Of a stretch of DNA of 64,000 nt, positions 5,237 through 56,390 are shown one piece after another. The position numbers and the translations under genes were made by a program. Positions within the stretch are counted from its first letter, which is position 1. Each line of letters begins with the position of its first letter. The notes under the pieces are model-generated. The model made no database searches, was not told the DNA's origin, and saw only the letters and a program-made list of their open reading frames with translations. The stretch lies in the IMG/VR virus record IMGVR_UViG_3300035208_002098, positions 96,001 through 160,000 of that record; one strand, given 5' to 3'. The stretch comes from a virus. Lineage: Duplodnaviria > Caudoviricetes.

Positions 5237-5965
5237 TTGGTTTTTGTAAAATATCTAGATATTTATAGATATATACAAATTATTATGATACCATTATACA
5301 CTGAAGAAGAATTTAAAACCGCCAAATCATTTGATGAATTATCATGCCAATGTTTAATTTGTGGTAAAACATTTAAACAAAAAAAATACATTGTAAAAAT
5401 GGCTTTAAGTCCAAAATATGAAAGGACTGGTGATTTTTGTTCACTTACATGTCAACAAAAATCTAATATAAAAAAAGATACATTTAAAATATTTAATTGT
5501 TGTAATTGCAATAAAGAAATTATAAAACAATCGTCAGCCAGTAAACGTCATAAAAATACTTTCTGTTCACATTCATGCTCTACAAAATATTTAAATTCAC
5601 ATAAAACTACCGGTACAAGACGTTCTAAATTAGAAATGTATGTTGAAGAACAACTTACATTACTTTACCCTAATCTAGATATTAAATATAATGATAAATC
5701 AGTTATTAATTCTGAATTAGATATCCACATACCATCACTTAACTTAGCATTCGAACTTAATGGTATATTCCATTATGAACCAATATTCGGTGTTAATAAA
5801 TTAGACCAAATACAAACTAATGATATATCTAAATCAAAAGCCTGTATAGATGCAAAGATTGATTTATGTATAATAGATACATCTGGTCATAAATATGTTA
5901 AACCTAAAACTAGTGAAAAATATCTTAATATTATAATTAAAATTATTAACACTAGATTAGCCTAA
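5237..5965 (+). CDS. Zn-finger + PD-(D/E)xK/Vsr-like putative homing endonuclease
   Basis: Repeated CxxC..FCS..C motifs; ELDIHIPSLNLAFELNGIFHY; paralog of 62643-63329. Confidence 0.8.
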   Translation: MVFVKYLDIYRYIQIIMIPLYTEEEFKTAKSFDELSCQCLICGKTFKQKKYIVKMALSPKYERTGDFCSLTCQQKSNIKKDTFKIFNCCNCNKEIIKQSSASKRHKNTFCSHSCSTKYLNSHKTTGTRRSKLEMYVEEQLTLLYPNLDIKYNDKSVINSELDIHIPSLNLAFELNGIFHYEPIFGVNKLDQIQTNDISKSKACIDAKIDLCIIDTSGHKYVKPKTSEKYLNIIIKIINTRLA

Positions 5966-6042: not shown

Positions 6043-6085
6043 AAAAACAAAAAACCCAATCTACATTTCTGAGGATTGGGTCTTT
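6043..6085 (-). terminator. attenuator terminator, tRNA operon 1
   Basis: AGACCCAATC/GATTGGGTTT hairpin followed by a T tract. Confidence 0.85.
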
Positions 6086-6114
6086 ATATTATTTTGAAAG
6101 AATACTCTAATTCT

Positions 6115-6201
6115 TTACATAAAATTATATAACATACCCAATCCGTTTTGGCCCTCGCCTTTCGGTTGTTTCGTTCCTTGATATGTTGTATACGTTTTCA
6201 T
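6115..6201 (-). CDS. leader peptide 1: MKTYTTYQGTKQPKGEGQNGLGMLYNFM
   Basis: 28 aa ORF between promoter repeat and terminator; codons 2-18 are only K,T,Y,Q,G,P,E. Confidence 0.88.
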   Translation of the reverse strand: MKTYTTYQGTKQPKGEGQNGLGMLYNFM

Positions 6202-6230
6202 TGTTTTAATTTTTATATTTTTAATATTCT

Positions 6231-6318
6231 ATTGTTTGTTTATAAATATACTGCAAAGATATGAAAAGTTTCAATACGAGTCAAGTATTTTCGCATTTAT
6301 TTTCAAATTATTTTTTAA
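6231..6318 (-). promoter_or_regulatory. tRNA-operon promoter repeat, copy 1
   Basis: ACTTGACTCGTATTGAAACTTTTCATATCTTTGCAGTATATTTATAA; TAnnTTTG element; near-identical at 21797-21880 and 54586-54678. Confidence 0.85.
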
Positions 6319-11759: not shown

Positions 11760-12815
11760 TTAATATCCGTAAGTTAATTGTTTTATTTGTGCTTTTTTAA
11801 GTTTAAATTCAACATCTTTAAATGTAAATTTAAAACCATTTTCGATTATACTAAAATTAGTGCATTCGTTATACATATAATATTCATCAAAGTCATCCAA
11901 AACGTCTTTATTATCTTCATTTTTAATTGTGCCACCCCAATAAAAATCTAAATTAAAACTACAATTAATATCTAAAGGGTTAAAGTCATTAAAAATACCA
12001 GAAGTTGTTTTATTTGTTATTAAATGTCTTGCTGTAAAATCAAATGATATAGCTTCACTTTCTAAATTTAAATAAAAGAATAACTCATTAACATTACTTG
12101 AATCATTAAAATTAATTTCTTCTATTATAGCATTTAATACGTCCATATTAACATTACCAAGTATAGTACAAGCTTTTATAGCATTATCGATATGTATTTT
12201 ATTTATTAATTTATCATTTAATATTAAACCAATTTCATCTAATGATAAATCTTTAAAATCTATTTTATAATAAATTCTAGATGGTCTATTTTTTAAAAAA
12301 TAATTAACTCGATTATCAGCATTTGAGGTCATTAAAACTAAAATTTTATTACGCCCCCACCCATCTAATAACGGTAATAAAACTTCCTGATGTTCATTAT
12401 CATAAACTTTCTCAAATTCATCAATAAATAATATAAATTTTTGGCTTATTTCACTAATGAAACCAACAAAATCACCTTCATCATATGCTTTATTCAATAT
12501 AATTATAGGTAATTTAGCTTCATTACATATTAATTTAGCTGTTAATGATTTACCAGAACCTTTTTTACCATTAAGTAAAACACCTAAGTTTTTATCTCTT
12601 TCATAATACCTTTTTAATACTTTATCACAAATTATTTGGCAATTACCATATATTTTAGTAGGCATTTCAAATGTACTAATATCATTCATCATAAGAGAAA
12701 ATTGTTTAGTTAATGGATTTTGTATTACAGTATATATACCTAATGGTAACCCTTTAATAAACTCAGCATCTGCTGAATGTAAACTATAATTTGTACCTTG
12801 TCTTAAAATCTTCAT
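11760..12815 (-). CDS. AAA+ ATPase
   Basis: GKKGSGKS, LFIDEFEK, NRPSR; start taken at MKILRQG because the longer ORF overlaps a tRNA. Confidence 0.85.
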   Translation of the reverse strand: MKILRQGTNYSLHSADAEFIKGLPLGIYTVIQNPLTKQFSLMMNDISTFEMPTKIYGNCQIICDKVLKRYYERDKNLGVLLNGKKGSGKSLTAKLICNEAKLPIIILNKAYDEGDFVGFISEISQKFILFIDEFEKVYDNEHQEVLLPLLDGWGRNKILVLMTSNADNRVNYFLKNRPSRIYYKIDFKDLSLDEIGLILNDKLINKIHIDNAIKACTILGNVNMDVLNAIIEEINFNDSSNVNELFFYLNLESEAISFDFTARHLITNKTTSGIFNDFNPLDINCSFNLDFYWGGTIKNEDNKDVLDDFDEYYMYNECTNFSIIENGFKFTFKDVEFKLKKAQIKQLTYGY

Positions 12816-12841
12816 ACATTTGTTTTTAAAATTAATAAAAG

Positions 12842-12925
12842 TGATGGTAATGGGATTCGAACCAACATACGTCATGACCTTCCGATTAAATGTCGGGTGC
12901 TCTAACCAGACTGAGCTATACCATC
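12842..12925 (-). tRNA. atypical tRNA-Lys(TTT)
   Basis: Loop CATTTAA (A33), extended variable region. Confidence 0.6.
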
Positions 12926-13062
12926 ATAAGTTTTTTAGTTGGTCAGGGCCAACATAGAACCGTATTTACCAAACTAAAAGCCCCACATGTGTCGGATGTG
13001 AACCGGTGGTTTATATTCTTGATTATCGAGCATTTAAAACAACCTAAAACTTTCGCTACGTG

Positions 13063-13189
13063 TGGTGATAATAGGATTTGAACCTATGCCATTATAAAGT
13101 TAATAGAAATCTCAATTAACCATTCAATTTCATCTTTATAACCTAACCTAACTATCGTTAGTGCTCTCACCGGACTGAGCTATACCATC
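13063..13189 (-). ncRNA. tRNA-scaffold RNA with ~50-nt variable-arm domain
   Basis: Normal D and T arms, no 7-nt anticodon loop, TTATAAAG/CTTTATAA stem. Confidence 0.55.
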
Positions 13190-13203
13190 ATTTTTGCCCT
13201 TAA

Positions 13204-13371
13204 GTTGAACACATGAGAGTTCAGTTATTGCCTTGGGACTTTTGGCTATTTAATACTAAATAAATACCCTCATGGACTTAACTACATTACCACTACTCTC
13301 TTTATCTCCTACTTATTTTTAGCTCTTTACCTTTGTAGTAGACTCAAGCCTTATTAAAGTGTACGTTCAAC
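13204..13371 (-). ncRNA. putative structured RNA
   Basis: Ends pair GTTGAAC/GTTCAAC; non-coding, inside the RNA array. Confidence 0.35.
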
Positions 13372-13381
13372 GAACAACCTG

Positions 13382-13476
13382 TGATACTAGATGGACTCGA
13401 ACCAACAACCCCTTGACCTACTTTACACATCATGTATTTCGTTGCAAGTCCTCTACCAATTAAGAGATATAGTACC
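13382..13476 (-). ncRNA. tRNA-scaffold RNA with expanded anticodon arm
   Basis: GGTACTA/TAGTATC acceptor; ~29 nt between CTTG and CAAG. Confidence 0.6.
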
Positions 13477-13518
13477 AAATTAATTTTTTATCTATTCAAT
13501 ATTCCATAATGTCTAAAG

Positions 13519-13590
13519 TGGTGATGGGTGGAATTGAACCACCGACACATGGATTTTCAGTCCATTGCTCTACCCCTGAGCTACATCACC
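13519..13590 (-). tRNA. tRNA-Phe(GAA)
   Basis: Canonical cloverleaf. Confidence 0.93.
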
Positions 13591-13672
13591 ATATTTACCT
13601 CGGTTACAAACCGAGGGTTTTTTCCACGACCAATTATATTATTAATTAACCTTAGAATTTTATTACATCCAG

Positions 13673-13834
13673 TAGAAATGATTGGATTCGAACCAATGAC
13701 CTTCTCACTTATGAGGTGAGTCGTTCTGATTAATATTTCTGACTTCCCTAGAAGTGTTTTACTCTATTAACCCCAAGTTGTGAATCCCATCCCTATTTTA
13801 CTAGAGCCAACTTAGCCACTCAACGTACATTTCT
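13673..13834 (-). tRNA. tRNA(CAT) with ~90-nt D-loop insertion
   Basis: AGAAATG/CATTTCT, D-stem CGTT/AACG enclosing the insert, CTCAC-CTCATAA-GTGAG, perfect T-arm. Confidence 0.75.
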
Positions 13835-13836
13835 AG

Positions 13837-13912
13837 TGGCGATTTACTGAATCGAACAGCAACGGGTATATCTACCAAAGGATTCATGAGGTCCTCGTTT
13901 CCACATATCGCC
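13837..13912 (-). tRNA. atypical tRNA(CAT), truncated D-arm
   Basis: GGCGAT/ATCGCC acceptor, loop CTCATGA. Confidence 0.5.
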
Positions 13913-14010
13913 AAATTTAACAATCTCTTACTTAAAGACAATCCACGAATTCCTAAACTCGCTTCTAAGCCCCTACTACTTCTTAAATTGTTTAATATTA
14001 AAAAATTAAT

Positions 14011-14136
14011 AACAATATTGATTTTTTTACGTGCTCTACCAACTGAGCTATATTATCAATTACTTGATAATAGGTGGGTTCGAACCACCGACCACGAGCT
14101 TAACAGGCTGATTTTAAATTGCTGAAACAATATTTT
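14011..14136 (-). ncRNA. YrlA-like Y RNA with Asn anticodon-loop mimic
   Basis: AATATTG-TTTCAGCAA..AGC-CTGTTAA-GCT, T-arm, loop-closed acceptor TATTATCAA/TTGATAATA, D-arm, CAATATT-GT. Confidence 0.75.
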
Positions 14137-14238
14137 ATATTAATTTAGTTCTATATTGAGGACTCGAACCCACATGTACTCCACTAATAGTAATATTAGT
14201 CAGTATTATAGTACCGTGAGATTTTACCCTCACAGCTT

Positions 14239-14378
14239 AATTAATTAAATGATAGGACTCGAACCTATACTAGACGGGAAACCGGGTTGGGACCTATTAG
14301 GCTGTTCTGATTACCGTGTACATACTATTTTAACCCTCGACCAGCGTGTATTCCAATTCCACCACACTTTAATTAATT
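14239..14378 (-). ncRNA. Leu-like tRNA scaffold with large anticodon-arm insert
   Basis: D-arm GGTGGAATTGGAATACAC, T-arm ATAGG-TTCGAGT-CCTAT, extended acceptor. Confidence 0.55.
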
Positions 14379-14391
14379 GTTTTTTTTTGAT

Positions 14392-14674
14392 TACAGATTC
14401 ATGACTAGTAGTAGACGAAACTACTGTATGTCTTTACGGCTGCCGTAAAACGTGCTTTCGGGCACAAGAGTCTATCCTTGCTAACCAACCCATTGTTTAC
14501 TAAACCCATGTGGTAAAACGAATATTTCTATTCTCCCACTGATTATTCAACCACATCGCCACCGGGCACTACATGCTTTTCTTTTACCGTACTAACATGA
14601 GTATATCGCTATCATATTTCTATGCTTCGCTACCTTAGAACCATTATTTTTTTATATTGCAGTAATGAATCTTT
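14392..14674 (-). ncRNA. long (~280 nt) Y-like RNA
   Basis: AGATTCAT-TACTGCAA ... ATGAATCT-GT terminal module; internal GAAA tetraloop hairpins. Confidence 0.55.
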
Positions 14675-14684
14675 AAATCATTTT

Positions 14685-14841
14685 AAGTAATTATTACGAG
14701 GTGAAGAAGCATATTCTCTTTGAACTATTACCATTCGAGAACCACACGGGTAGCGTGGTGACCAATATTAAACATCATCAGACATTTATTTATATATAGT
14801 CTATTCCTTAATTCTTTCTAAAGCGTGTACCTTAATTACTT
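14685..14841 (-). ncRNA. putative structured RNA
   Basis: Terminal AAGTAATTA/TAATTACTT; internal ACCACG/TGTGGT hairpin. Confidence 0.35.
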
Positions 14842-14850
14842 ATTTCTTTT

Positions 14851-14943
14851 AATTAATCACCAATGGATACTTCTTCTCGCTGCGGTCTTGTCTAAACAAA
14901 ACTAGTGGATACTGAAGATATTACACCATGGTATTGATTAATT
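14851..14943 (-). ncRNA. putative structured RNA
   Basis: Terminal AATTAATCA/TGATTAATT; first unit after boxA. Confidence 0.35.
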
Positions 14944-14980
14944 ATATTTTTATTCTGTCAATGAACTTTGTATTTTTAAT

Positions 14981-15025
14981 TACACTGCAAAGATAAATAT
15001 TATATTTGACATGTGCAAGTAAAAT
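14981..15025 (-). promoter_or_regulatory. Bacteroidota-type promoter of the ncRNA array
   Basis: CTTG...TATCTTTGCAG upstream of boxA; no leader or terminator seen. Confidence 0.65.
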
Positions 15026-15036
15026 CGTATTTATTT

Positions 15037-15894
15037 TTATAAAATGTTAAAATTATAATCAGATACTTTTTCAGGTAATGTTAATCTTTTACATTTTTCA
15101 CCACATCTAAATTTATTCCAAGCCATTACGATATAAGCGTTTACTGATGTTTGGGTTAAATCAAACTCTTTATCCATTTTTTTTCTTATCAATTTATTTC
15201 GTAAAATTGCTATTGGTGAATTAGCCTCTAACATTTCACCTGAAGATAATTTATGGATAAATATATCAGCATCTTCTTTATTAATAAGACTAAATAAATA
15301 ATGAAAACTACTTAAAGTTGTTGCATTACATATAGCATATTTTTTATAATAATGTAAACCAAATGTTATACTACCATCTATATTACCCTCTTCACCTAAT
15401 AAATCATAATATTCTAATATATCTGCATTTGATAAAGTTCTTATAGTACTTCTATTATGTGAGAATAAATTTTTTCGAAAACCAAATATAGTTTTAATTA
15501 CTGCAGCTGTTTGACAATAATTCTTAACACCAGCTATTGCTAACATATCAGCACCGTCACGTTTATCACCAGTATCCATTACTTTAAACGACTCATTATC
15601 TAAACCACGAATAACCGAAAATTTATAAGTTTTATTAGCTTTTACTAATGCAGTTAATCTATGTCGGCCATCAATTAATTCATTATTTTGATTAAATCTA
15701 ATTGGTGAACCATCAAATAACCAATTACCTATTTCCATTTCTTTCACCAAAAAATTAACATTAGTTTTTGATAACGGCCTATTATTATAAGTGTCCGCAT
15801 CTAATATTTCTTTAGCCATTTCTGGTGTTATATCTATTTCTTCATAAATACGCTTTTGGTCATTACTACCTTCTAAAATTTCATTTACTATCAT
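15037..15894 (-). CDS. ParB-like domain protein
   Basis: ITPEMAKEIL..NNRPL..LIDGRHRL. Confidence 0.75.
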   Translation of the reverse strand: MIVNEILEGSNDQKRIYEEIDITPEMAKEILDADTYNNRPLSKTNVNFLVKEMEIGNWLFDGSPIRFNQNNELIDGRHRLTALVKANKTYKFSVIRGLDNESFKVMDTGDKRDGADMLAIAGVKNYCQTAAVIKTIFGFRKNLFSHNRSTIRTLSNADILEYYDLLGEEGNIDGSITFGLHYYKKYAICNATTLSSFHYLFSLINKEDADIFIHKLSSGEMLEANSPIAILRNKLIRKKMDKEFDLTQTSVNAYIVMAWNKFRCGEKCKRLTLPEKVSDYNFNIL

Positions 15895-15960
15895 ATTACA
15901 TTATTTAATTATTTAATAATGCAAAGATAAAAAAAGAATTTGATATATTCAAGTTTTTTA

Positions 15961-16149
15961 CTAAAAATTAAAATAATTTTTAAATAAAATAAAAAGCATT
16001 ACTGTTGTAGCTAATGTTTCCAAAGCATTAACCCATTTCCAAAATAAACCCATATCAGTATTAAATGCTGACCGTACTCCTATTATTAATCTAATATTTA
16101 GGTAAATTAAATTAATAACACCTAGAAAAATTAAAACATTTATTATCAT
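15961..16149 (-). CDS. small membrane protein
   Basis: Two hydrophobic segments. Confidence 0.6.
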   Translation of the reverse strand: MIINVLIFLGVINLIYLNIRLIIGVRSAFNTDMGLFWKWVNALETLATTVMLFILFKNYFNF

Positions 16150-16218
16150 CTTATAAAATTTAAATTAATACTATGCAAATATAAATAAAATAATTAACAT
16201 TACCAAATAATTTAAGAA

Positions 16219-16861
16219 TTATTTCATAACACCTAAAAATTCCTTAGTTTTATTGAACCCTATTAAATTTGCTATATTTTTAAGGATACCAGTTCTACTG
16301 GCTACATTATGTGATTGATACTGACTTATTAAATTAACTATATCAGCTTCCTTATCTCTATTTAAAGCCATTTTATAATCTACTATATCACCAAGACTCA
16401 TAAATAATGACCATTTATAAATGTTGAATCTATTAATATTGAACTAGTTGGTCTAACTTTAACTGTGGCATAATCACCACCAGCCTTCGAAGGGTCCCAA
16501 ATATTAAAAGCTTCTATTATATTTGTTGGCCTGTATGGTACACCACTTTGATATTCTTTGGTTAATCCAGCATATTCCCAATACTTTTGTTCTGGTATTA
16601 CAATGTCTAAATCACCAATAGTAGAGTTTAAATTGAAGAATTCTCTTAATTTAGGGTATAAATATAATCTAGCTGAACCAGCTATAAAATAATTACGTTG
16701 TTTAGGGTCAATACCAAATTTATTGAATACTAATTCATCCGCTTGTTGTAATAACGAATTTAAATTTACATCACCAGATACTTCCTCTTCTAACGTGTTT
16801 AAAAAATCTTTTATTATTATATCTTTATTATATCTTTAGTGTATAACTCAAATAATCTCAT
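16219..16861 (-). pseudogene. frameshifted nucleotidyltransferase-fold gene
   Basis: YFIAGSARL...IGDLDIVI readable, but broken by a TAAAGATATAA duplication and two further frameshifts. Confidence 0.6.
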
Positions 16862-17144
16862 ATTTCCTAATTTTATCTACTTTATCTTTATTATAAATAT
16901 TATCAAAAGTTAATATCTTAAAAGATAACAAAATAAAAAATGGGTGTGGACCTTTTAAAAATAAAAAATTATATGCTGACCATTTAGCTTTTAAATAATA
17001 TTTTTCTTGTAACATATCAGGTAATAAATCTTCATTCTCATCAACATACTTCCAGTCATAGGTCATACATACATTATTAACCCTTTTCATGAAGAAGTAG
17101 AATTCGAATATTCTTACTAATATTATTATAACTAAAATTATCAT
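16848..17144 (-). CDS. hypothetical membrane-anchored protein
   Basis: N-terminal hydrophobic helix. Confidence 0.6.
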   Translation of the reverse strand: MIILVIIILVRIFEFYFFMKRVNNVCMTYDWKYVDENEDLLPDMLQEKYYLKAKWSAYNFLFLKGPHPFFILLSFKILTFDNIYNKDKVDKIRKYEII

Positions 17145-17276
17145 ATCTATAAATATTTAATACAAATATACAAATAATATTTTAATAAACAAAATAAATA
17201 CCATAAAAAAGCTCATTAGAGCTCATATTAAATCTTTTATGAGCTCTAATAGGTGAGAAAATGAGCTTAATTTGTG

Positions 17277-17351
17277 TGGAAGTCATGGGTATCGAACCCA
17301 CCTCACTCTGATTGCAAATCAAAATCGCCTTGCCTTGGTTCATGCACCCCC
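17277..17351 (-). tRNA. tRNA-Cys(GCA), divergent
   Basis: Loop TTGCAA, T-arm GTGGG-TTCGATA-CCCAT. Confidence 0.75.
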
Positions 17352-17354
17352 AGT

Positions 17355-17449
17355 TACAGGTTAGTTATTTTTTGACGGATTTGAACCGTCTAGCATTTGA
17401 GTTTGAATCAATTGTTTTAACCATTTAGTTTTTGCTGAAACTAACCTTT
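17355..17449 (-). ncRNA. Y-like RNA carrying a Leu(CAA) anticodon arm and T-arm
   Basis: AGGTTAGT-TTCAGCAA..TTGA-TTCAAAC-TCAA..GACGG-TTCAAAT-CCGTC..ACTAACCT-GT. Confidence 0.7.
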
Positions 17450-17520
17450 AGTTTAATTATTATTTTGTATACATATATGTTTACTTATTTACATTTTTGT
17501 AAACATATGTGATGACTTTG

Positions 17521-17594
17521 TGGAGCCAATGGGACTTGAACCCACAACCTCTTCCGTGCAAGGGAAGTATTCTAGCCAATTGAAATATGACCCC
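17521..17594 (-). tRNA. tRNA-Ala(TGC)
   Basis: G3:U70, CTTCC-CTTGCAC-GGAAG. Confidence 0.93.
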
Positions 17595-17599
17595 ATTAT

Positions 17600-18253
17600 T
17601 TATTTTCTACCTTTTACCCAACCTTCGTTTTCCCAATTAGGTAAATCGTCTTTTTTAATTTTTTTATTGTTATTATCTTTAGTAATCCAACAAGTACCAT
17701 ATTGTGAATTAGTTTCACCAACACCAGTACCACTTTTAATTTTAGACATTTTAACTTTAGTTTCATTTGAATGGATTTTACCTGTCCAATCAGGTATTAC
17801 TATTTTACCATCTTTATGCGTGTTTTTAGCTAAATTAGAAACCCTAAGACGATGTATTTCTCGATAATCACTATCGTTCTTTAATCTATTACCGTGTGCC
17901 TCACCACCTTTTTTACATTGATTCGCTTTATTATTTAAACCATTTTCATTTATAATGTAAAAACTACCACTACCACCGACAACTAAATTCATACATTCTT
18001 TCTTAGCTATTTCACTTAATGTAACTACTTCTTCCTCACGTTTCTTTAATTCATCTCTACTTTCACAGAATTCTAATATTTCTCTATTAAAATTAGTTTT
18101 ACCATGTTTCTTAATTGCTCTACTTAATCTAGTTCCACTACCTAGATAACCATCTTCTAGGTTATTGGTACTATGCATTCCTATATAATATCTACCACTT
18201 AATAGGTTAGTAGTTTTATAGATAAAATGATATTGTTTTTCTTTTCTCGCCAT
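17600..18253 (-). CDS. GIY-YIG (Seg-like) homing endonuclease
   Basis: FIYKTTN..YYIGMH..YLGSG. Confidence 0.88.
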   Translation of the reverse strand: MARKEKQYHFIYKTTNLLSGRYYIGMHSTNNLEDGYLGSGTRLSRAIKKHGKTNFNREILEFCESRDELKKREEEVVTLSEIAKKECMNLVVGGSGSFYIINENGLNNKANQCKKGGEAHGNRLKNDSDYREIHRLRVSNLAKNTHKDGKIVIPDWTGKIHSNETKVKMSKIKSGTGVGETNSQYGTCWITKDNNNKKIKKDDLPNWENEGWVKGRK

Positions 18254-18319
18254 AATATTCGTACTTTATTATATAAATATCATGTCATATTCAAAAAGTA
18301 CAAAAACATGACATTTGTG

Positions 18320-18391
18320 CGGCTTATCCGGGACTCGAACCCGGTTCTCCAGCGTGACAAGCTGGAAGGATAACCCATACCCTAATAAGCC
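18320..18391 (-). tRNA. tRNA-Asp(GTC)
   Basis: CCAGC-TTGTCAC-GCTGG, G73. Confidence 0.88.
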
Positions 18392-18396
18392 AAGTG

Positions 18397-18474
18397 CGGA
18401 CTAGAGGGAATTCGAATCCCTGTTTTAGAGGAGTGACAGTCCAATTCTCACACGCCAGTTGAGCACCCTAGTCC
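18397..18474 (-). tRNA. tRNA-Asp(GTC), divergent
   Basis: GGACTAG/CTAGTCC, loop CTGTCAC. Confidence 0.7.
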
Positions 18475-18475
18475 A

Positions 18476-19075
18476 TTATTTAATATTTTTACCACCATGT
18501 GTATCCAATGTTGCATTACAATTCGGACATACAATACGTAAATTTTCTATTCTATTATCATCATTAATACCATTTATATGGTCTAATATTAATGACATAT
18601 GTTTACCATCCCATTCTTCACCTTGACCACATAATTCACATTTACGTTCTTTTAAACCTTCTTTATATAATCTTTCTTTAAGGTTGGTAGTATAAATATA
18701 TGTAGAATTTTCAACTAATATTTCACTTAAATTTTTTTTAGCTGACGGTGTTTTCATACCATTCCTAAAATGAGAAATATCACATTTATATATTTTTATA
18801 TATTTTTTAATTGTTTGTCTATTACCCATTGTTGTAGATAGTTTTAAATTTCTACAAACATCTACATAATTAATAGAGTTTTTAATAATTTCAGTGAAAT
18901 ATAATTCTTCATATCTTTTATTAGGTAATCGTTTAATACCAAGTTTATCTATTTTTTGTTTAACATTTTTAATGTTTCTACCAGATAATAGTTCAAAGCA
19001 GTATTTACAACCATATTCTGGGTAATTGTTATATAAAATATCAATCTCATCCTTAGTCCATAATTTTCCAACCAT
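18476..19075 (-). CDS. HNH homing endonuclease
   Basis: LILDHINGINDDNRIENLRIVCPNCN. Confidence 0.9.
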   Translation of the reverse strand: MVGKLWTKDEIDILYNNYPEYGCKYCFELLSGRNIKNVKQKIDKLGIKRLPNKRYEELYFTEIIKNSINYVDVCRNLKLSTTMGNRQTIKKYIKIYKCDISHFRNGMKTPSAKKNLSEILVENSTYIYTTNLKERLYKEGLKERKCELCGQGEEWDGKHMSLILDHINGINDDNRIENLRIVCPNCNATLDTHGGKNIK

Positions 19076-19099
19076 ATATATTTATTTTTTAATTATTTG

Positions 19100-19171
19100 T
19101 GCCTAGAGTTGGAATTGAACCAACGACACCCGGCTCTTCAAACCGGTGCTCTACCCCTGAGCTACCTAGGC
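19100..19171 (-). tRNA. tRNA-Phe(GAA)
   Basis: Canonical cloverleaf. Confidence 0.9.
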
Positions 19172-19259
19172 TTTTTAAGGTTTTACCCTTATATTTTAAT
19201 TAATTTATAAGGTTATAAGCTTATAAACATACTTTATAAGCCTTTAAGCTTATATTTTG

Positions 19260-19290
19260 TGGAACCAATCGGAGTTGACCCGATGTCTAA
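19260..19290 (-). pseudogene. orphan tRNA 3' end (T-arm plus acceptor strand)
   Basis: ATCGG-GTCAACT-CCGAT-TGGTTCC-A directly after the HNH stop; no 5' half found. Confidence 0.55.
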
Positions 19291-19788
19291 CTAATGATTT
19301 CTTATATACTCTAATAACTTTTCATCATTATGTTTATTATGTTCCTCACTATGACAATTACCACATAATAATATACACTTATCTAATTCATTTTTTAACA
19401 CATCCCAACTTTTATTAGATGAACTAGAAATTGTGAATTCTTTTTCATTTTGTGATAAATGATGAAATTGTAGTCCTGATAAAGATTTATTATACCCACA
19501 TATTTGACAACAACCACCTTTATAGTCAATTGCTCTTACTTTAAATTTATATCTTCTCACCCTAATAGCACATGCACCACACGTTGACCGGTTTTTAAAA
19601 TTATTTTCAATTTCATGCCCACAAATAACACAATTATAATTTTTTACTTTTTCATTAGACTTAGTTAAACCTAATTTTTTTAATAATCTACCAACTGTTG
19701 TATCGTGACAATTTAAAATTGCACCTATTTTAACATTAGATAAACCACTTTCATACAGCCTTATTAACTCTTTTTCATCAACACCCAT
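19291..19788 (-). CDS. HTH + HNH homing endonuclease
   Basis: CQICGY...LQFHH...CGNCHSEEH. Confidence 0.85.
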   Translation of the reverse strand: MGVDEKELIRLYESGLSNVKIGAILNCHDTTVGRLLKKLGLTKSNEKVKNYNCVICGHEIENNFKNRSTCGACAIRVRRYKFKVRAIDYKGGCCQICGYNKSLSGLQFHHLSQNEKEFTISSSSNKSWDVLKNELDKCILLCGNCHSEEHNKHNDEKLLEYIRNH

Positions 19789-19820
19789 ATTTTTATATTT
19801 AATAATTTAATTATATTTTG

Positions 19821-19901
19821 TACTCTCGATGAGATTTGAACTCACACATCTTTCGATACCGGGTTTTGAATCCAGCTTGTCTACCGTTCCAGCACGAGAG
19901 C
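19821..19901 (-). tRNA. tRNA-Leu(CAA)
   Basis: Class II cloverleaf, loop TTCAAAA. Confidence 0.9.
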
Positions 19902-20003
19902 TTAATAAACCTATTTTTGCATGATAAACCAACCTAGTTTATTGTGCATAATAACATCGTTTTTACATAATATCATAATACATGTTATTATGCACGATTT
20001 ATG

Positions 20004-20660
20004 TTATTGTATAATATTTATTTTTCTACCTTTACACCACCCATTAGATTCATATTCAACTAATAATTCTACCTTAATCTTTTTATTACTATCTTCTTTG
20101 GTAATCCAACAAGTACCATAAGATGGGTTTTTATCACCATCATATTTACCTTTCATAGAATTAGATAAATTACTTTTAGTTTCATTAGTATGTTTTTTAT
20201 TTTTAAAGTTAGCGTGATTAAAATTAATCCGTTTATGACTATCACTTATTTTTTTACAATATTCTTTATACCAATCTTCATCATTTTCTCTCAACCATTT
20301 TATAATTTTATGTGATGCTTCATAATTAACCGTTTCAAAAAATTTTTTTCTATGTTCCTCACTACTAAAACCACCACCACCACCAACTTGTAAATTCATA
20401 CATTCTTTCTTAGCTATTTCACTTAATGTAACTATTTCAGATTCACGTTTCTTTAATTCTTCTCGTGAAGAACAGAATTCTAATATCACCCTACTAAAGT
20501 TCTCTTTACCGTGTTTCTTAATTGCTCTACTAATTAAATAACCACTACCTAGATAACCATCTTCTAAGTTATCTGTGCTATGCATTCCTATATAATATCT
20601 ACCACTTAATAAATTAGTAGTCTTATAGATGAAATGATATAATTTTTGTTTTCTTGCCAT
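20004..20660 (-). CDS. GIY-YIG (Seg-like) homing endonuclease
   Basis: Close paralog of 17600-18253. Confidence 0.88.
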   Translation of the reverse strand: MARKQKLYHFIYKTTNLLSGRYYIGMHSTDNLEDGYLGSGYLISRAIKKHGKENFSRVILEFCSSREELKKRESEIVTLSEIAKKECMNLQVGGGGGFSSEEHRKKFFETVNYEASHKIIKWLRENDEDWYKEYCKKISDSHKRINFNHANFKNKKHTNETKSNLSNSMKGKYDGDKNPSYGTCWITKEDSNKKIKVELLVEYESNGWCKGRKINIIQ

Positions 20661-20723
20661 GATATTTGTACTTTATTATAAATATCTAGTATTTACCAAA
20701 AAGTACAAAAACATGACATCGGG

Positions 20724-20806
20724 TGACCAAGGTGAGAGTCGAACTCACACGTCCTTTCAGACAGTAGCTTCTTAGACTACCGGGTCTGCCATTCCCCCAC
20801 TCGGCC
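20724..20806 (-). tRNA. tRNA-Leu(AAG)
   Basis: GTAGT-CTAAGAA-GCTAC. Confidence 0.88.
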
Positions 20807-20814
20807 AATAAAAG

Positions 20815-20886
20815 CGGTCCGGAAGGGACTCGAACCCTCAACCATCTCGCAGACAACGAGTTATACCACCATTGTACTACCGGACC
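20815..20886 (-). tRNA. tRNA-Asp(GTC)
   Basis: GGTCCGG/CCGGACC, loop TTGTCTG, G73. Confidence 0.8.
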
Positions 20887-20892
20887 ATTAAT

Positions 20893-21021
20893 AAAAGTTT
20901 CTTATATCATCACATTGGCCAGATGTGACCTTCCTATCAATATATGTTTGTCGACCAACATAAATAATAAGTGATTTATCTCCCTCACTCACGGAGGGCC
21001 TTACATCATAAAGATTCTTTT
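20893..21021 (-). ncRNA. three-hairpin RNA with palindromic loops
   Basis: CCCTC/GAGGG, TATGTT-GGTCGACA-AACATA, TCACAT-CTGGCCA-ATGTGA. Confidence 0.5.
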
Positions 21022-21024
21022 CTG

Positions 21025-21107
21025 TGACCTCAATGGGAGTCGAACCCATACGCTCTTAGAGCATTGCCTTTTAAGGACAACGTGTCTACCAATTCCACCA
21101 TGAGGCC
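21025..21107 (-). tRNA. tRNA-Leu(TAA)
   Basis: TTGTC-CTTAAAA-GGCAA. Confidence 0.92.
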
Positions 21108-21112
21108 ATTTG

Positions 21113-21187
21113 CAGTATAGGTAGGATTTGAACCTACAACCATAGGAAGGCCGTTCCCGTGCTCACCCATCTTCTCGCTTCTATACT
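21113..21187 (-). tRNA. atypical tRNA, anticodon GGC (Ala?)
   Basis: AGTATAG/CTATACT, loop ACGGCCT, lacks G3:U70. Confidence 0.5.
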
Positions 21188-21253
21188 AACACCTAAATCT
21201 TATTACGTAATTATATAAATAGGTGTGGTGATTACCTTCAAAGTAACCATTTG

Positions 21254-21335
21254 TCCCCCAAGAGAGATTCGAACTCTCACGCATTTTCAGCCACGGCTTC
21301 TAAGACCGCTGTGTCTACCGTTCCACCATCGGGGG
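21254..21335 (-). tRNA. tRNA-Leu(TAG)
   Basis: GCGGT-CTTAGAA-GCCGT. Confidence 0.92.
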
Positions 21336-21367
21336 ATATTACCAATATTTCAATGAACTAAATCCAG

Positions 21368-21452
21368 TACGACCTGTAGGATTCGAACCTACGTTATACT
21401 ATTCGCCTCTACTGTGTAAAAGTAGTGCTCTTACCAACTGAGCTAAGGTCGC
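21368..21452 (-). tRNA. tRNA-Val(TAC), long variable region
   Basis: CTACT-TTTACAC-AGTAG. Confidence 0.85.
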
Positions 21453-21459
21453 ATTTTTG

Positions 21460-21547
21460 AGTACCCGGTCAGATTTGAACTGACGATGAAGCTTTCGCTT
21501 TGGTGGTTTTGCAGACCACCCCCTTCGACCACTCGGAGCACAGATAC
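21460..21547 (-). tRNA. tRNA-Cys(GCA), long variable arm
   Basis: GTGGT-CTGCAAA-ACCAC, V-arm AAGC-GAAA-GCTT, U73. Confidence 0.85.
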
Positions 21548-21591
21548 ATTTTTATTTCAATTTTTAAACTTTAACTCTTTAAAGTATATGC

Positions 21592-21627
21592 AAAAAAAAA
21601 GTCCAATTCTTTTGTAGAACCGGACTT
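21592..21627 (-). terminator. attenuator terminator, tRNA operon 2
   Basis: AAGTCCGGTTCT/AGAATTGGACTT hairpin plus T tract. Confidence 0.85.
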
Positions 21628-21662
21628 AGTTTTTTATGTTTTTAAAAATTTGTTTTACCAAA

Positions 21663-21770
21663 TTATTTATATAACTTATTAACGTAGTCCGACCTCTTTA
21701 ACGCATCAAATGCATCAAATAAGACTGCTGTACAATCTAGAAGGGCTAATATGTTAAAAGTTGTTATCAT
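21663..21770 (-). CDS. leader peptide 2: MITTFNILALLDCTAVLFDAFDALKRSDYVNKLYK
   Basis: 35 aa ORF; 16 of codons 8-24 are L,A,D,C,V,F. Confidence 0.88.
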   Translation of the reverse strand: MITTFNILALLDCTAVLFDAFDALKRSDYVNKLYK

Positions 21771-21796
21771 TTTTATATTTTTTGTTTTATTACTAC

Positions 21797-21880
21797 TTGT
21801 TTGTTTATAAATATACTGCAAATATACGAAAAGTTTCAATACGAGTCAAGTATTTTCGCATTTATTTTTAAATTATTTTA
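21797..21880 (-). promoter_or_regulatory. tRNA-operon promoter repeat, copy 2
   Basis: Near-identical to 6231-6318. Confidence 0.85.
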
Positions 21881-21913
21881 CATTTATTTTTTAAAATGTT
21901 GATTACTAATACG

Positions 21914-54387: not shown

Positions 54388-54401
54388 AATTATTTTAAAA
54401 T

Positions 54402-54437
54402 AAAAAAGCCTGAAACGTTTTTACGAATCAGGCTTTT
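54402..54437 (-). terminator. attenuator terminator, tRNA operon 3
   Basis: AAAAGCCTGA/TCAGGCTTTT hairpin plus T tract. Confidence 0.85.
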
Positions 54438-54469
54438 AAGCTTTTAATATTTTTAATATCTTATCTTGT

Positions 54470-54562
54470 TTACAAGAAATTAAACATACCTGATTCGGAA
54501 TGGATAGAACGTCTAATGTTCGACCAATTACTATGAATACTATGTATATTATTATTTCTCAT
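54470..54562 (-). CDS. leader peptide 3: MRNNNIHSIHSNWSNIRRSIHSESGMFNFL
   Basis: 30 aa ORF; codons 2-22 are only R,N,I,H,S,W. Confidence 0.9.
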   Translation of the reverse strand: MRNNNIHSIHSNWSNIRRSIHSESGMFNFL

Positions 54563-54585
54563 TTTTTCTATTTGTTTATTGTTTA

Positions 54586-54678
54586 ATTCTATTGTTTGTT
54601 TATAAATATACTGCAAAGATATGAAAAGTTTCAATACAAGTCAAGTATTTTCGCAATTATTTTCAATTTATTTTTTAA
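54586..54678 (-). promoter_or_regulatory. tRNA-operon promoter repeat, copy 3
   Basis: Near-identical to 6231-6318. Confidence 0.85.
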
Positions 54679-54700: not shown

Positions 54701-55228
54701 TTATTTTAAAAATTTAGCTGGTACGTGGTCAGTTAACCAGACACCGTTAGTTGATTGATAGAAAATAAACCCTTCGTTATACATTTCACCGGCTAATACT
54801 TCAAATATAATTGGTTTACCATGTCTACTACCGACATTTGTGGCCGTTTCAATATCATTACTTAAATGAACATAGTCTCTTTTTAATTTTAGTAATCCAT
54901 TTTCATTAATCGATTTAACACTATCAATACTAGTACCATGATATAATATATTAGGTGGTGTTTTACTTTCATATTGTAGGTCAATACCTAATGAATGGCC
55001 TTGACTAGCTCTGATTTTTGATTTATCATTATTAAACTCAAATCTTTTTTTATTATTAGTTCTAACAATAAACTCAAGTTCTTCAATGTCTATTTTTCTA
55101 CCATTTTTATTCATTTGTAATAGTAATTGGGTAACTTCTACCCAACCACTATTATCTAATTTTAAACCTATTGTTTCTGGTTTATGTCTTAATATAAGAC
55201 TTAAAAACCTACTATTATCGTTACTCAT
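54701..55228 (-). CDS. kptA: RNA 2'-phosphotransferase Tpt1/KptA
   Basis: SLILRH, KKRF, IRASQGHS, YHGT, VHLS. Confidence 0.93.
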   Translation of the reverse strand: MSNDNSRFLSLILRHKPETIGLKLDNSGWVEVTQLLLQMNKNGRKIDIEELEFIVRTNNKKRFEFNNDKSKIRASQGHSLGIDLQYESKTPPNILYHGTSIDSVKSINENGLLKLKRDYVHLSNDIETATNVGSRHGKPIIFEVLAGEMYNEGFIFYQSTNGVWLTDHVPAKFLK

Positions 55229-56390
55229 TTAACATTTTATTAAAGTTTTCTAATTCAAGTTCATGTATTTTTTTACCCATTTCAGGTCCGGGTTTAATAC
55301 CTAATTTTTCTATATCTTCACCGGTAACTGTAAATTTAAAATCTAAGAATTTATCAATTAATTCGATGTCCATATTGTTTAATTCAGCGAATCTAATAAC
55401 TTCATCATTAGAAATTTTAGATAAAATTTGTGATTTTTTCGCATTATAAACTAAATTTGGTTCAAAATATAAGAATGACATTAAGAAGTATATTTTACCT
55501 ATTTCATCACTAGTATATTTTAACTCAGCTAACACTTTTTTTACGAGTGCTGGTGAATTACCTTCAAATATTATGGCCATTAAAACAATTGGACTTTTAA
55601 CTTCAATTAAATTAAAATGTCTAATGTTTAAACCGGGAAAAATAAGTTTAAACATATCATAAACAAATAAACTATTTAAAAATTGTCTAACTGATTTTGC
55701 TGTTTTAACACCTTTAATAAATTCATCTCGAATTCTTTCTGGTGACACACCAATTAAGTTATTATCTTTAGTTATAGCACCAGCTGTTTTGGAGTTCATA
55801 TTAAAACCAAATCTAGCTGAAAATCTAATAGCTCTTAATTTTCTAAGTTTATCTTCATTAAATCTATCAATTGGTTCACCAACAGTTCTAATTTCGCTAA
55901 AACGTAAATCGTAAATACCATCAACTAAGTCAACTATTTGACTTTTTTCTATATCATAGAATAAAGCATTGATTGTTAAATCTCTTCTAAGTACATCCTT
56001 TTCTATAGTTGAGAATATAACTTCATCAGGTCTTCTTGAGTCGGTATAATCACCATCTTCTCTGAATGTCGCAATTTCATATTCGTCATTACCAGTAATA
56101 ACATTAATAACACCAAATGCTTTACCGGTTTCCAAGATATTAGTAACAAATGGTTGACCTTTAAGAATTTCAATTATTTTATCTGGTATTGCATTTGTAG
56201 CTAAATCCCAATCTTTTGGTTTTAACCCTAAATATGCATCACGAACTGAACCACCGACTAGGAATAAGTCAAACCCAAATGTTTTAAAAACTTTATTGAT
56301 TTTTATAACATCTTCTGGTAAATCTATTTTAAAATCTAATCTTGTTTCCATTTTATTGTTCTTTTTAATTAGGATACAAAGATAACACAA
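55221..56390 (-). CDS. cca: CCA-adding tRNA nucleotidyltransferase
   Basis: VGGSVRD, KDWDLAT, RRDLTINA, EDKLR.LRAIRF; most tRNAs here lack an encoded CCA. Confidence 0.88.
   Translation of the reverse strand: MCYLCILIKKNNKMETRLDFKIDLPEDVIKINKVFKTFGFDLFLVGGSVRDAYLGLKPKDWDLATNAIPDKIIEILKGQPFVTNILETGKAFGVINVITGNDEYEIATFREDGDYTDSRRPDEVIFSTIEKDVLRRDLTINALFYDIEKSQIVDLVDGIYDLRFSEIRTVGEPIDRFNEDKLRKLRAIRFSARFGFNMNSKTAGAITKDNNLIGVSPERIRDEFIKGVKTAKSVRQFLNSLFVYDMFKLIFPGLNIRHFNLIEVKSPIVLMAIIFEGNSPALVKKVLAELKYTSDEIGKIYFLMSFLYFEPNLVYNAKKSQILSKISNDEVIRFAELNNMDIELIDKFLDFKFTVTGEDIEKLGIKPGPEMGKKIHELELENFNKMLNE

Follow-up and report, generated by a model that had tools for sequence, protein, structure and literature searches.

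The sequence preceding a phage tRNA operon (operon 2) most probably forms a classical four-region ribosome-mediated attenuator, here termed att2, which acts on tRNA genes and would give a demand-driven tRNA supply. Under such control, the phage would probably make the tRNAs of operon 2 only when ribosomes decode the sensor codons of a short leader open reading frame (ORF) slowly. We base this reading on sequence anatomy, statistics, and co-variation across genomes. The initial annotation had proposed that the leader senses the amino acids of its own operon, a view that is strongly supported by the anatomy of the unit, by two sister units, and by co-variation of leaders with tRNA genes across related and unrelated phages. 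The mechanism class is known; the novelty lies in its application to tRNA genes, in a sensor that covers several tRNAs, and in the way paralogous units partition the genetic code among themselves.

tRNA Operon 2 and Its Genome Setting

The window analyzed here (64,000 nt) comprises bases 96001–160000 of a single 248,412-bp contig with 27.7% G+C. The contig looks like a jumbo phage, whose host is presumed to belong to the Bacteroidota, and it carries 48 tRNA genes and a tmRNA, every one on the minus strand. Coordinates below are those of the window, and the features of att2 and operon 2 all lie on the minus strand. Operon 2 (17520–21547), delineated with ARAGORN and Rfam, contains 11 tRNA genes in the order Cys, Val, Leu(TAG), Leu(TAA), Asp, Leu(AAG), Leu(CAA), Phe, Asp, Asp, and Ala(TGC). 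The totals (one Cys, one Val, four Leu, three Asp, one Phe, and one Ala(TGC)) correspond exactly to the amino acid set {L,A,D,C,V,F}. The operon ends in a terminator (17209–17224), and the next promoter-like site is found at 17192.

The tRNA genes themselves display several unusual features. GIY-YIG/NUMOD3 and other endonuclease-like ORFs are interspersed among them (17600–20660 and 5237–5965), while the orthologous tRNA block in a related contig, L056, is compact and free of such ORFs. About one third of the tRNA genes (∼16 genes) are 79–90 nt long though not Leu, Ser, or Tyr, such as Val (86 nt, 21367–21452) and Cys (89 nt, 21459–21547) as well as Thr, Lys, Glu, Gln, Trp, Ile, Arg, and Asn genes; these over-long genes often adjoin a normal-length copy with the same anticodon, and the versions in L056 are of ordinary size (72–75 nt). 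The best match of the tRNA-Cys gene is the tRNA-Sec model, at 32 bits and below threshold. Odd or degenerate tRNA-like genes occur on the minus strand at 12930–14200 and 17277–17350, including a 127-nt Rfam tRNA match, a relaxed ARAGORN call with a 15-nt intron, and a gene with an 8-nt anticodon loop (ttgg). A further tRNA-like element, which ARAGORN does not call, directly precedes the operon 2 terminator.

Sensor Codons of the att2 Leader

The att2 leader ORF (21663–21770, ATG at 21770) consists of 35 codons followed by TAA and is kept in the orthologue found in L056/L055. Codons 8–24 (21699–21749) constitute the sensor run, in which, as the initial annotation had noted, 16 of 17 codons fall within {L,A,D,C,V,F}; Thr14 (ACA) is the sole exception. 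Given the amino acid frequencies of the genome, where the set has a frequency of 0.294, this composition has a binomial P of 3.8e-8. When the 1718 short ATG ORFs of the genome (248 kb) were ranked for this set, the att2 leader came second, behind an off-frame ORF rich in L/F/V; that att2 by itself reaches only the second place is due to the largely hydrophobic nature of set 2. The weight of att2 derives from its context and its relatives, which we count among the limits of the attenuator reading.

The Leu codons of the sensor run (TTA three times, CTT, and CTA) do correspond to the Leu(TAA), Leu(AAG), and Leu(TAG) tRNAs of the operon, as had been pointed out, and Leu(CAA) is encoded there as well. 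The broader claim of a codon-to-anticodon match did not survive scrutiny. The tRNA-Ala(GGC) on which it drew does not exist: searches of the window and of the whole genome (ARAGORN with default and relaxed settings, Rfam at E≤1) detected no such gene, and Ala(TGC) (17520–17594) is the only tRNA-Ala found by ARAGORN and Rfam in either. Judged by standard wobble, 14 of the 17 sensor codons are readable by operon 2 tRNAs, compared to 12.9 expected from synonymous resampling (P = 0.29), which is not above chance. Operon 2 supplies no standard reader for the sensor codons GCC and GTC, a point that counts against the attenuator reading, and the synonymous codon diversity of the sensor is likewise not above chance by synonymous resampling. 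Rare synonymous codons are enriched among the sensor codons of att2 (P = 0.045) and of the sister unit att3 (P = 6.5e-4; pooled P = 2e-4). High sensitivity has been derived for leaders that combine a large share of regulatory codons with rare codons (PMC1183508), and att2-type sensors match both conditions.

Promoter and 5′ Untranslated Region

A 69-nt repeat (21797–21865) encompassing promoter and 5′UTR is common to att2 and the two sister units. A whole-genome blastn search returned three copies only, at window positions 21865, 6300, and 54660 and sharing 94–100% identity, and behind each of them come a short ORF, a terminator, and a tRNA block. The att2 promoter (21819–21849) reads TTGACT, 17 nt, TATATTTG; it is of the Bacteroidota −33/−7 type and also resembles a σ70 promoter. 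We infer a transcription start near 21813. Bacteroidota-type sites (TTG-N17-21-TAnnTTTG) number 27 on the minus strand of the window versus 4.7 expected, and none of the 27 lies inside operon 2 (21547–17209), so that no further promoter of the usual phage type was found there. An A-rich 5′UTR separates the att2 promoter from the leader ORF.

Two additional motifs accompany the units. The 5′UTR motif ATATTTATAAACAAA (21814–21797) has equivalents in att1, att3, and the related contigs G006 and G008, and its spacing is kept relative to the leader ATG (20–35 nt) but not relative to the promoter; a translation enhancer and a binding site are both conceivable functions. The 16-nt motif TTCWTTGACATATTGG has four matches in the window (54307–54292, 21357–21342, 5996–5981, and 5234–5219), all on the minus strand, compared to 0.28 expected. 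It stands once or twice near the start of each tRNA operon, downstream of the attenuator, and its likeness to boxA was judged by eye only. The operon 2 copy occupies 21342–21357, and in operon 3 two copies flank an inserted plus-strand ORF (5237–5965). The motif may represent a target duplication or serve in antitermination in the manner of boxA.

Predicted Terminator, Antiterminator, and Protector Pairings

The att2 terminator hairpin (21599–21627) is predicted to form 12 pairs (−13.9 kcal/mol) and begins 35 nt after the stop codon. Its 5′ arm (region 3, 21627–21616) and, after the loop, its 3′ side (region 4, 21610–21599) lead into a T9 tract (21592–21600), which lies 44 nt from tRNA-Cys (21547). 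The 5′ strand of the putative antiterminator (region 2, 21685–21698) lies in codons 25–29 and has its core, GGTCGGACT, at 21694–21686. The pairing suggested earlier between this core and the terminator holds, in that GGTCGGACT can face AGTCCGGTT (21626–21618) of the 5′ arm through six Watson-Crick and three G-U pairs. The best duplex between the att2 ORF and the terminator arm reaches −11.8 kcal/mol, an energy attained by 1.6% of shuffles, and region 2 occupies the position that corresponds to the own-terminator complement in the sister units.

A comparison across units supports this assignment. The terminators of the units differ, and the complement to a unit's own 5′ arm is located at codons 20–29, directly after the sensor. 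Duplexes with the own arm average −12.0 kcal/mol versus −7.7±2.5 kcal/mol for the arms of unrelated units, and the own arm ranks first in 9 of 13 units. This matrix of own- and foreign-arm duplexes was used in place of a count of pairs in aligned sequences (MAFFT, 12 units), which was dropped because regions 2 and 3 are at least one column out of register between families.

When transcripts were cut just before region 4, all three units of the window had the 2:3 helix as their minimum-energy fold. The complementary early pairing involves region 1 (codons 4–11, 21738–21761), whose predicted partner is region 2 together with its 3′ flank. Leader-only minimum-energy folds place region 2 and its 3′ flank against early codons (6–13) in each of the 13 units examined; a 1:2 protector hairpin is thus predicted by folding in all of them, and such pairing would explain why the out-of-set N-terminus of the leader is conserved. 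When a ribosome was represented by a mask in full-length equilibrium folds, att3 alone switched to the antiterminator, while att1 and att2 kept the terminator. Since att2 retains its terminator at equilibrium despite the stalled-ribosome mask, the switch would have to be kinetic, as in trpL.

The geometry of the leader end bears on how termination would occur. In att2, 19 nt separate the end of region 2 from the downstream stop codon (8–32 nt across units), so that, unlike in trpL, a ribosome at the stop codon does not cover region 2. As a result, termination would need either re-pairing of regions 1 and 2 or steric exclusion of the 2:3 loop that encloses the ribosome. Conversely, stalls at the last three to four sensor codons would cover region 2 and should give no read-through. 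The terminator starts 17–35 nt after the stop codon across units, and a terminating ribosome no longer represses a terminator located ∼30 nt or more beyond the stop codon (PMC4824070); at 35 nt, the att2 terminator lies outside this repression.

A Proposed Model for Demand-Driven tRNA Supply

In the proposed mechanism, transcription would proceed from the promoter at 21849–21819 and ribosomes would load onto the 35-codon leader. With Leu, Ala, Asp, Cys, Val, and Phe aminoacyl-tRNAs abundant, the ribosome would cross the sensor and region 2 to reach the stop codon, regions 3 and 4 would pair, and RNA polymerase would halt at the T9 tract (21600–21592) before tRNA-Cys. If any in-set tRNA were scarce or uncharged, the ribosome would stall within codons 8 to ∼20 and disrupt the 1:2 pairing, leaving region 2 free for the emerging region 3; the 2:3 pairing would then block the terminator, and the 11 tRNA genes down to 17520 would be transcribed. 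The expected outcome is a negative feedback in which the supply of the tRNA set tracks demand. The mechanism assumes close coupling of transcription and translation in the presumed Bacteroidota host.

Sister Units Partition the Genetic Code within the Window

Two further units share the design of att2, both on the minus strand. Att1 (54398–54660, leader ORF 54562–54470) precedes tRNAs for N,W,S,H,I,M,R, and att3 (6044–6300, leader ORF 6201–6115) precedes tRNAs for P,Q,Y,E,K,W,G,T. The att1 sensor lies within its own set at 21 of 21 codons and the att3 sensor at 17 of 17, and each of the two leaders ranks first genome-wide for its own set. In a 3×3 matrix of leaders against tRNA sets, the diagonal scores are 21, 14, and 17 versus 1–2 off the diagonal; that is, each leader matches its own tRNA block only, and the three sets jointly cover all 20 amino acids. 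Each unit also has a terminator of its own sequence together with a matching antiterminator segment just past the sensor. The T tract of att1 ends 12 nt before the first tRNA, which leaves read-through as the only visible route to expression.

Genes for a Tpt1/KptA RNA 2′-phosphotransferase and a CCA-adding enzyme are located immediately upstream of att1 (54701–56390, minus strand), and together they look like a module for tRNA repair and maturation adjoining the regulated tRNA blocks. In the closest relative (L001, 7840–8380), a second promoter and a structured-looking non-coding stretch of ∼450 nt lie between Tpt1 and the att1-type unit.

Leaders and tRNA Blocks Co-Vary across Phages

We identified related IMG/VR contigs through the proteins encoded near the units and through the promoter pattern. 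The promoter motif occurs 24 times in IMG/VR with a short leader ORF behind 23 of the 24 occurrences, and a composition-matched tRNA block follows wherever the downstream sequence is long enough. No match to the exact 43-nt 5′UTR pattern was found in IMG/VR, the looser promoter pattern being the one that gave matches, and a blastn search of the att2 region against cultured phages matched tRNAs only. Among the flanking genes used as queries for related loci, the ORF upstream of att3 gave no matches, and the ORF upstream of att2 gave weak N-terminal matches only, which yet led to tRNA-rich relatives; the loci retrieved through the neighboring Tpt1 gene (L002–L007) were mostly without nearby tRNAs. 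The 35-residue att2 leader is too short for a protein search, and its orthologue was found with a 58-residue extended frame.

This direct orthologue (L056/L055) has a leader with one in-set change, Leu8 to Val, and precedes C,V,L,L,F,D,A,F tRNAs. It shares 84% identity with att2 overall and 100% nucleotide identity over the sensor and region 2. More generally, the leader is kept as an in-frame ORF in over 20 units of other genomes, and variable sensor positions within leader families remain in-set although the changes are not chemically conservative.

Where the tRNA blocks are rearranged, the leaders follow. In G006 and G008, block 2 is divided between two operons. The C,V,L operon (C,V,L,L,V,L) is headed by a leader whose sensor run uses L, V, and C alone, and the F,E,D,A operon (F,(tca),E,D,A) by a leader whose run keeps to F, D, A, and E. 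The third block of these genomes has no tRNA-Glu and its leader no Glu, whereas in the window genome tRNA-Glu belongs to block 3 and Glu is present in leader 3. Matching leaders also accompany other partitions in two more distant contigs, G001 (S,F,Y,L) and G010 (S,Y,L,C). We tested the match across 15 units by permutation: the matched pairing scored 182 versus 48±14, and none of 100,000 permutations reached 182.

Units of the same design also occur in phages that are already published or in culture. In LR745206.1, a published phage of 634 kb, we count at least six units (H,F,W,K; R,S; E,Y; I,G,M,A; N,R,L,V,I,T,M; and P,D,Q), with an ORF-internal complement and a terminator 17–33 nt after the stop codon in six of six. 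The cultured Caulobacter phage CcrColossus has two: one, at around 68148–68243 of JX100810.1, precedes V,I,I,V,Q,Q,N,R,R tRNAs and has a terminator of −29.6 kcal/mol and an ORF-internal complement of −27.5 kcal/mol, and the other (L058) has a matching leader with out-of-set Thr residues and lacks a T-tract terminator. Experiments are therefore already possible. No leader was found for the second tRNA group of G001 or for the group in G005, and the G010 unit has a matching leader while a clear terminator is absent.

Over its first 33 nt, the leader of att2 (21770–21593) closely matches the C,V,L-type leader of G006 and G008 (L021 and L016 compared), and the F,E,D,A-type unit of the same two genomes has a terminator arm with which att2 region 2 can form a duplex of −16.5 kcal/mol. 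The single att2 leader may be a fusion of two ancestral units.

Alternative Explanations

Four other explanations, namely direct tRNA binding, a small protein gene, reversed logic, and a pure starvation signal, explain less of the data than the attenuator reading. Uncharged tRNAs might, in the manner of a T-box, pair with the codon run without a ribosome and stabilize the antiterminator. The run does list the amino acids of the operon, and an antiterminator/terminator pair is present, but this arrangement seems very improbable: 6–8 different tRNAs would need to bind a single short stretch, in every unit of every genome the codons form an unbroken run that shares the frame of an ATG and a stop codon, and the leaders are preceded by A-rich 5′UTRs typical of translated genes. 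Moreover, neither a T-box (stem I specifier loop, antiterminator) nor another cis-regulatory Rfam family matches here, the T-box search covering 12700–21900 at the gathering score or at E≤1. The ORF could also be an unrelated small-protein gene that has a promoter and terminator of its own and lies upstream by chance, with the tRNAs expressed by leaky, unregulated read-through or from an unrecognized promoter. The att2 peptide is rich in hydrophobic residues and could pass for a small membrane peptide, and the off-frame ORF mentioned above scores equally high for set 2. Such a gene would, however, leave unexplained the diagonal match of three paralogues, the co-variation through split, fusion, and Glu content, the 0 of 100,000 permutations, and the unit-specific complement to each terminator arm, and its sensor substitutions would not be expected to preserve set membership rather than chemistry; we regard this explanation as highly unlikely.

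With reversed, feed-forward logic, smooth translation of the leader would let the polymerase pass, for instance through ribosome–polymerase coupling or blocking of Rho, and healthy translation would be the condition under which the tRNAs are made. Terminators near a stop codon can indeed be suppressed by a ribosome that closely trails the polymerase (PMC4824070), but the att2 terminator, 35 nt after the stop, lies beyond the ∼30 nt at which this repression fades, and the conserved complement to the terminator arm downstream of the sensor would be freed by stalling, not by passage, which makes the reversed logic improbable. It also appears unlikely that the same attenuator responds to host amino acid starvation, i.e., to the charging level, and times the infection program rather than balancing tRNA supply. 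Leader-peptide attenuators read aminoacyl-tRNA, as in trp and his, and so cannot tell a missing tRNA from a missing amino acid (PMC1183508), which leaves room for such a signal; extra tRNA, however, does not relieve amino acid starvation, and the exact correspondence of leaders and tRNA genes, kept through rearrangements, points to tRNA supply.

A further proposal concerns the purpose of the attenuators. They might act as sentinels against tRNA-directed host immunity, with each tRNA block near-silent until decoding of its own codon set slows, a role that we find conceivable but rather doubtful. The triggers would be an anticodon nuclease, another tRNA-depleting defense, or the phage's own host shut-off; only the replacement tRNAs that are needed would be induced, alongside the Tpt1 and CCA-adding repair genes, and the partition of 20 amino acids into blocks would mirror the target ranges of defenses.

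Implications

If attenuation of operon 2 operates as proposed, tRNA-rich phages would adjust tRNA supply to demand block by block, and the leaders would directly report which tRNAs a phage handles as one unit, such that leader composition could predict unannotated or odd tRNA operons. The purpose of the tRNA arrays of large phages, codon-usage compensation versus counter-defense, would become testable, and the leaders would offer synthetic biology compact sensors for the availability of chosen tRNAs. Control of tRNA genes is generally placed at promoters (growth rate, stringent response). Our full-text literature searches turned up no report of tRNA genes being controlled by a leader peptide, and in the literature we found no described case of decoding speed feeding back on tRNA transcription through a leader peptide.

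Comparison with Known Systems

Phage tRNA arrays have been described either as compensating for codon usage or as an answer to tRNA-cleaving host defenses such as PARIS AriB (PMC12409363), and the tRNA counts of phiCbK-like phages have been treated in PMC3556154. The main text of the latter paper, which reports the CcrColossus genome, contains neither “leader” nor “attenuat.” The present phage resembles these in its large tRNA set, here adjoining the tRNA-repair genes for Tpt1 and the CCA-adding enzyme, whereas these accounts treat the arrays as simply expressed, unlike the control proposed for the att units.

T-box riboswitches (Rfam RF00230) likewise place a tRNA-responsive terminator/antiterminator switch in a 5′ leader. 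They differ in that a T-box needs no ribosome, its specifier codon and T-box bulge directly contacting a single uncharged tRNA, and in that T-boxes control synthetase and amino acid genes.

Closer parallels come from leader peptides. To our knowledge, known leader-peptide attenuators all regulate amino acid biosynthesis enzymes or synthetases, whereas the downstream genes of operon 2 are 11 tRNA genes and endonuclease-like ORFs. The pheM leader/attenuator of E. coli pheST, which encodes phenylalanyl-tRNA synthetase, is read out via tRNA-Phe charging and, as proposed for the phage units, is a case of leader-peptide attenuation of a translation-apparatus gene; unlike them, it belongs to a host gene, controls a synthetase, senses one amino acid, and controls no tRNA gene. 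Multivalent attenuators are known in enterobacteria from the ilvGMEDA leader (Leu/Val/Ile codons) and the thr leader (Thr/Ile), besides trpL, hisL, leuL, and pheL. The phage units share with them a short leader ORF whose dense regulatory codons stand for more than one amino acid and include rare synonymous ones, the pairings 1:2, 2:3, and 3:4 (predicted for the phage units), and an intrinsic terminator before the structural genes; the general mechanism of leader-peptide attenuation is described in PMC1183508. Unlike the enterobacterial attenuators, the phage units would regulate tRNA genes instead of biosynthetic enzymes, so that the sensed molecule would be of the same class as the product; their leaders would sense 6–8 amino acids each, region 2 and 3–10 further codons precede the stop codon, and the units are phage-borne, with several paralogues partitioning the genetic code among them.
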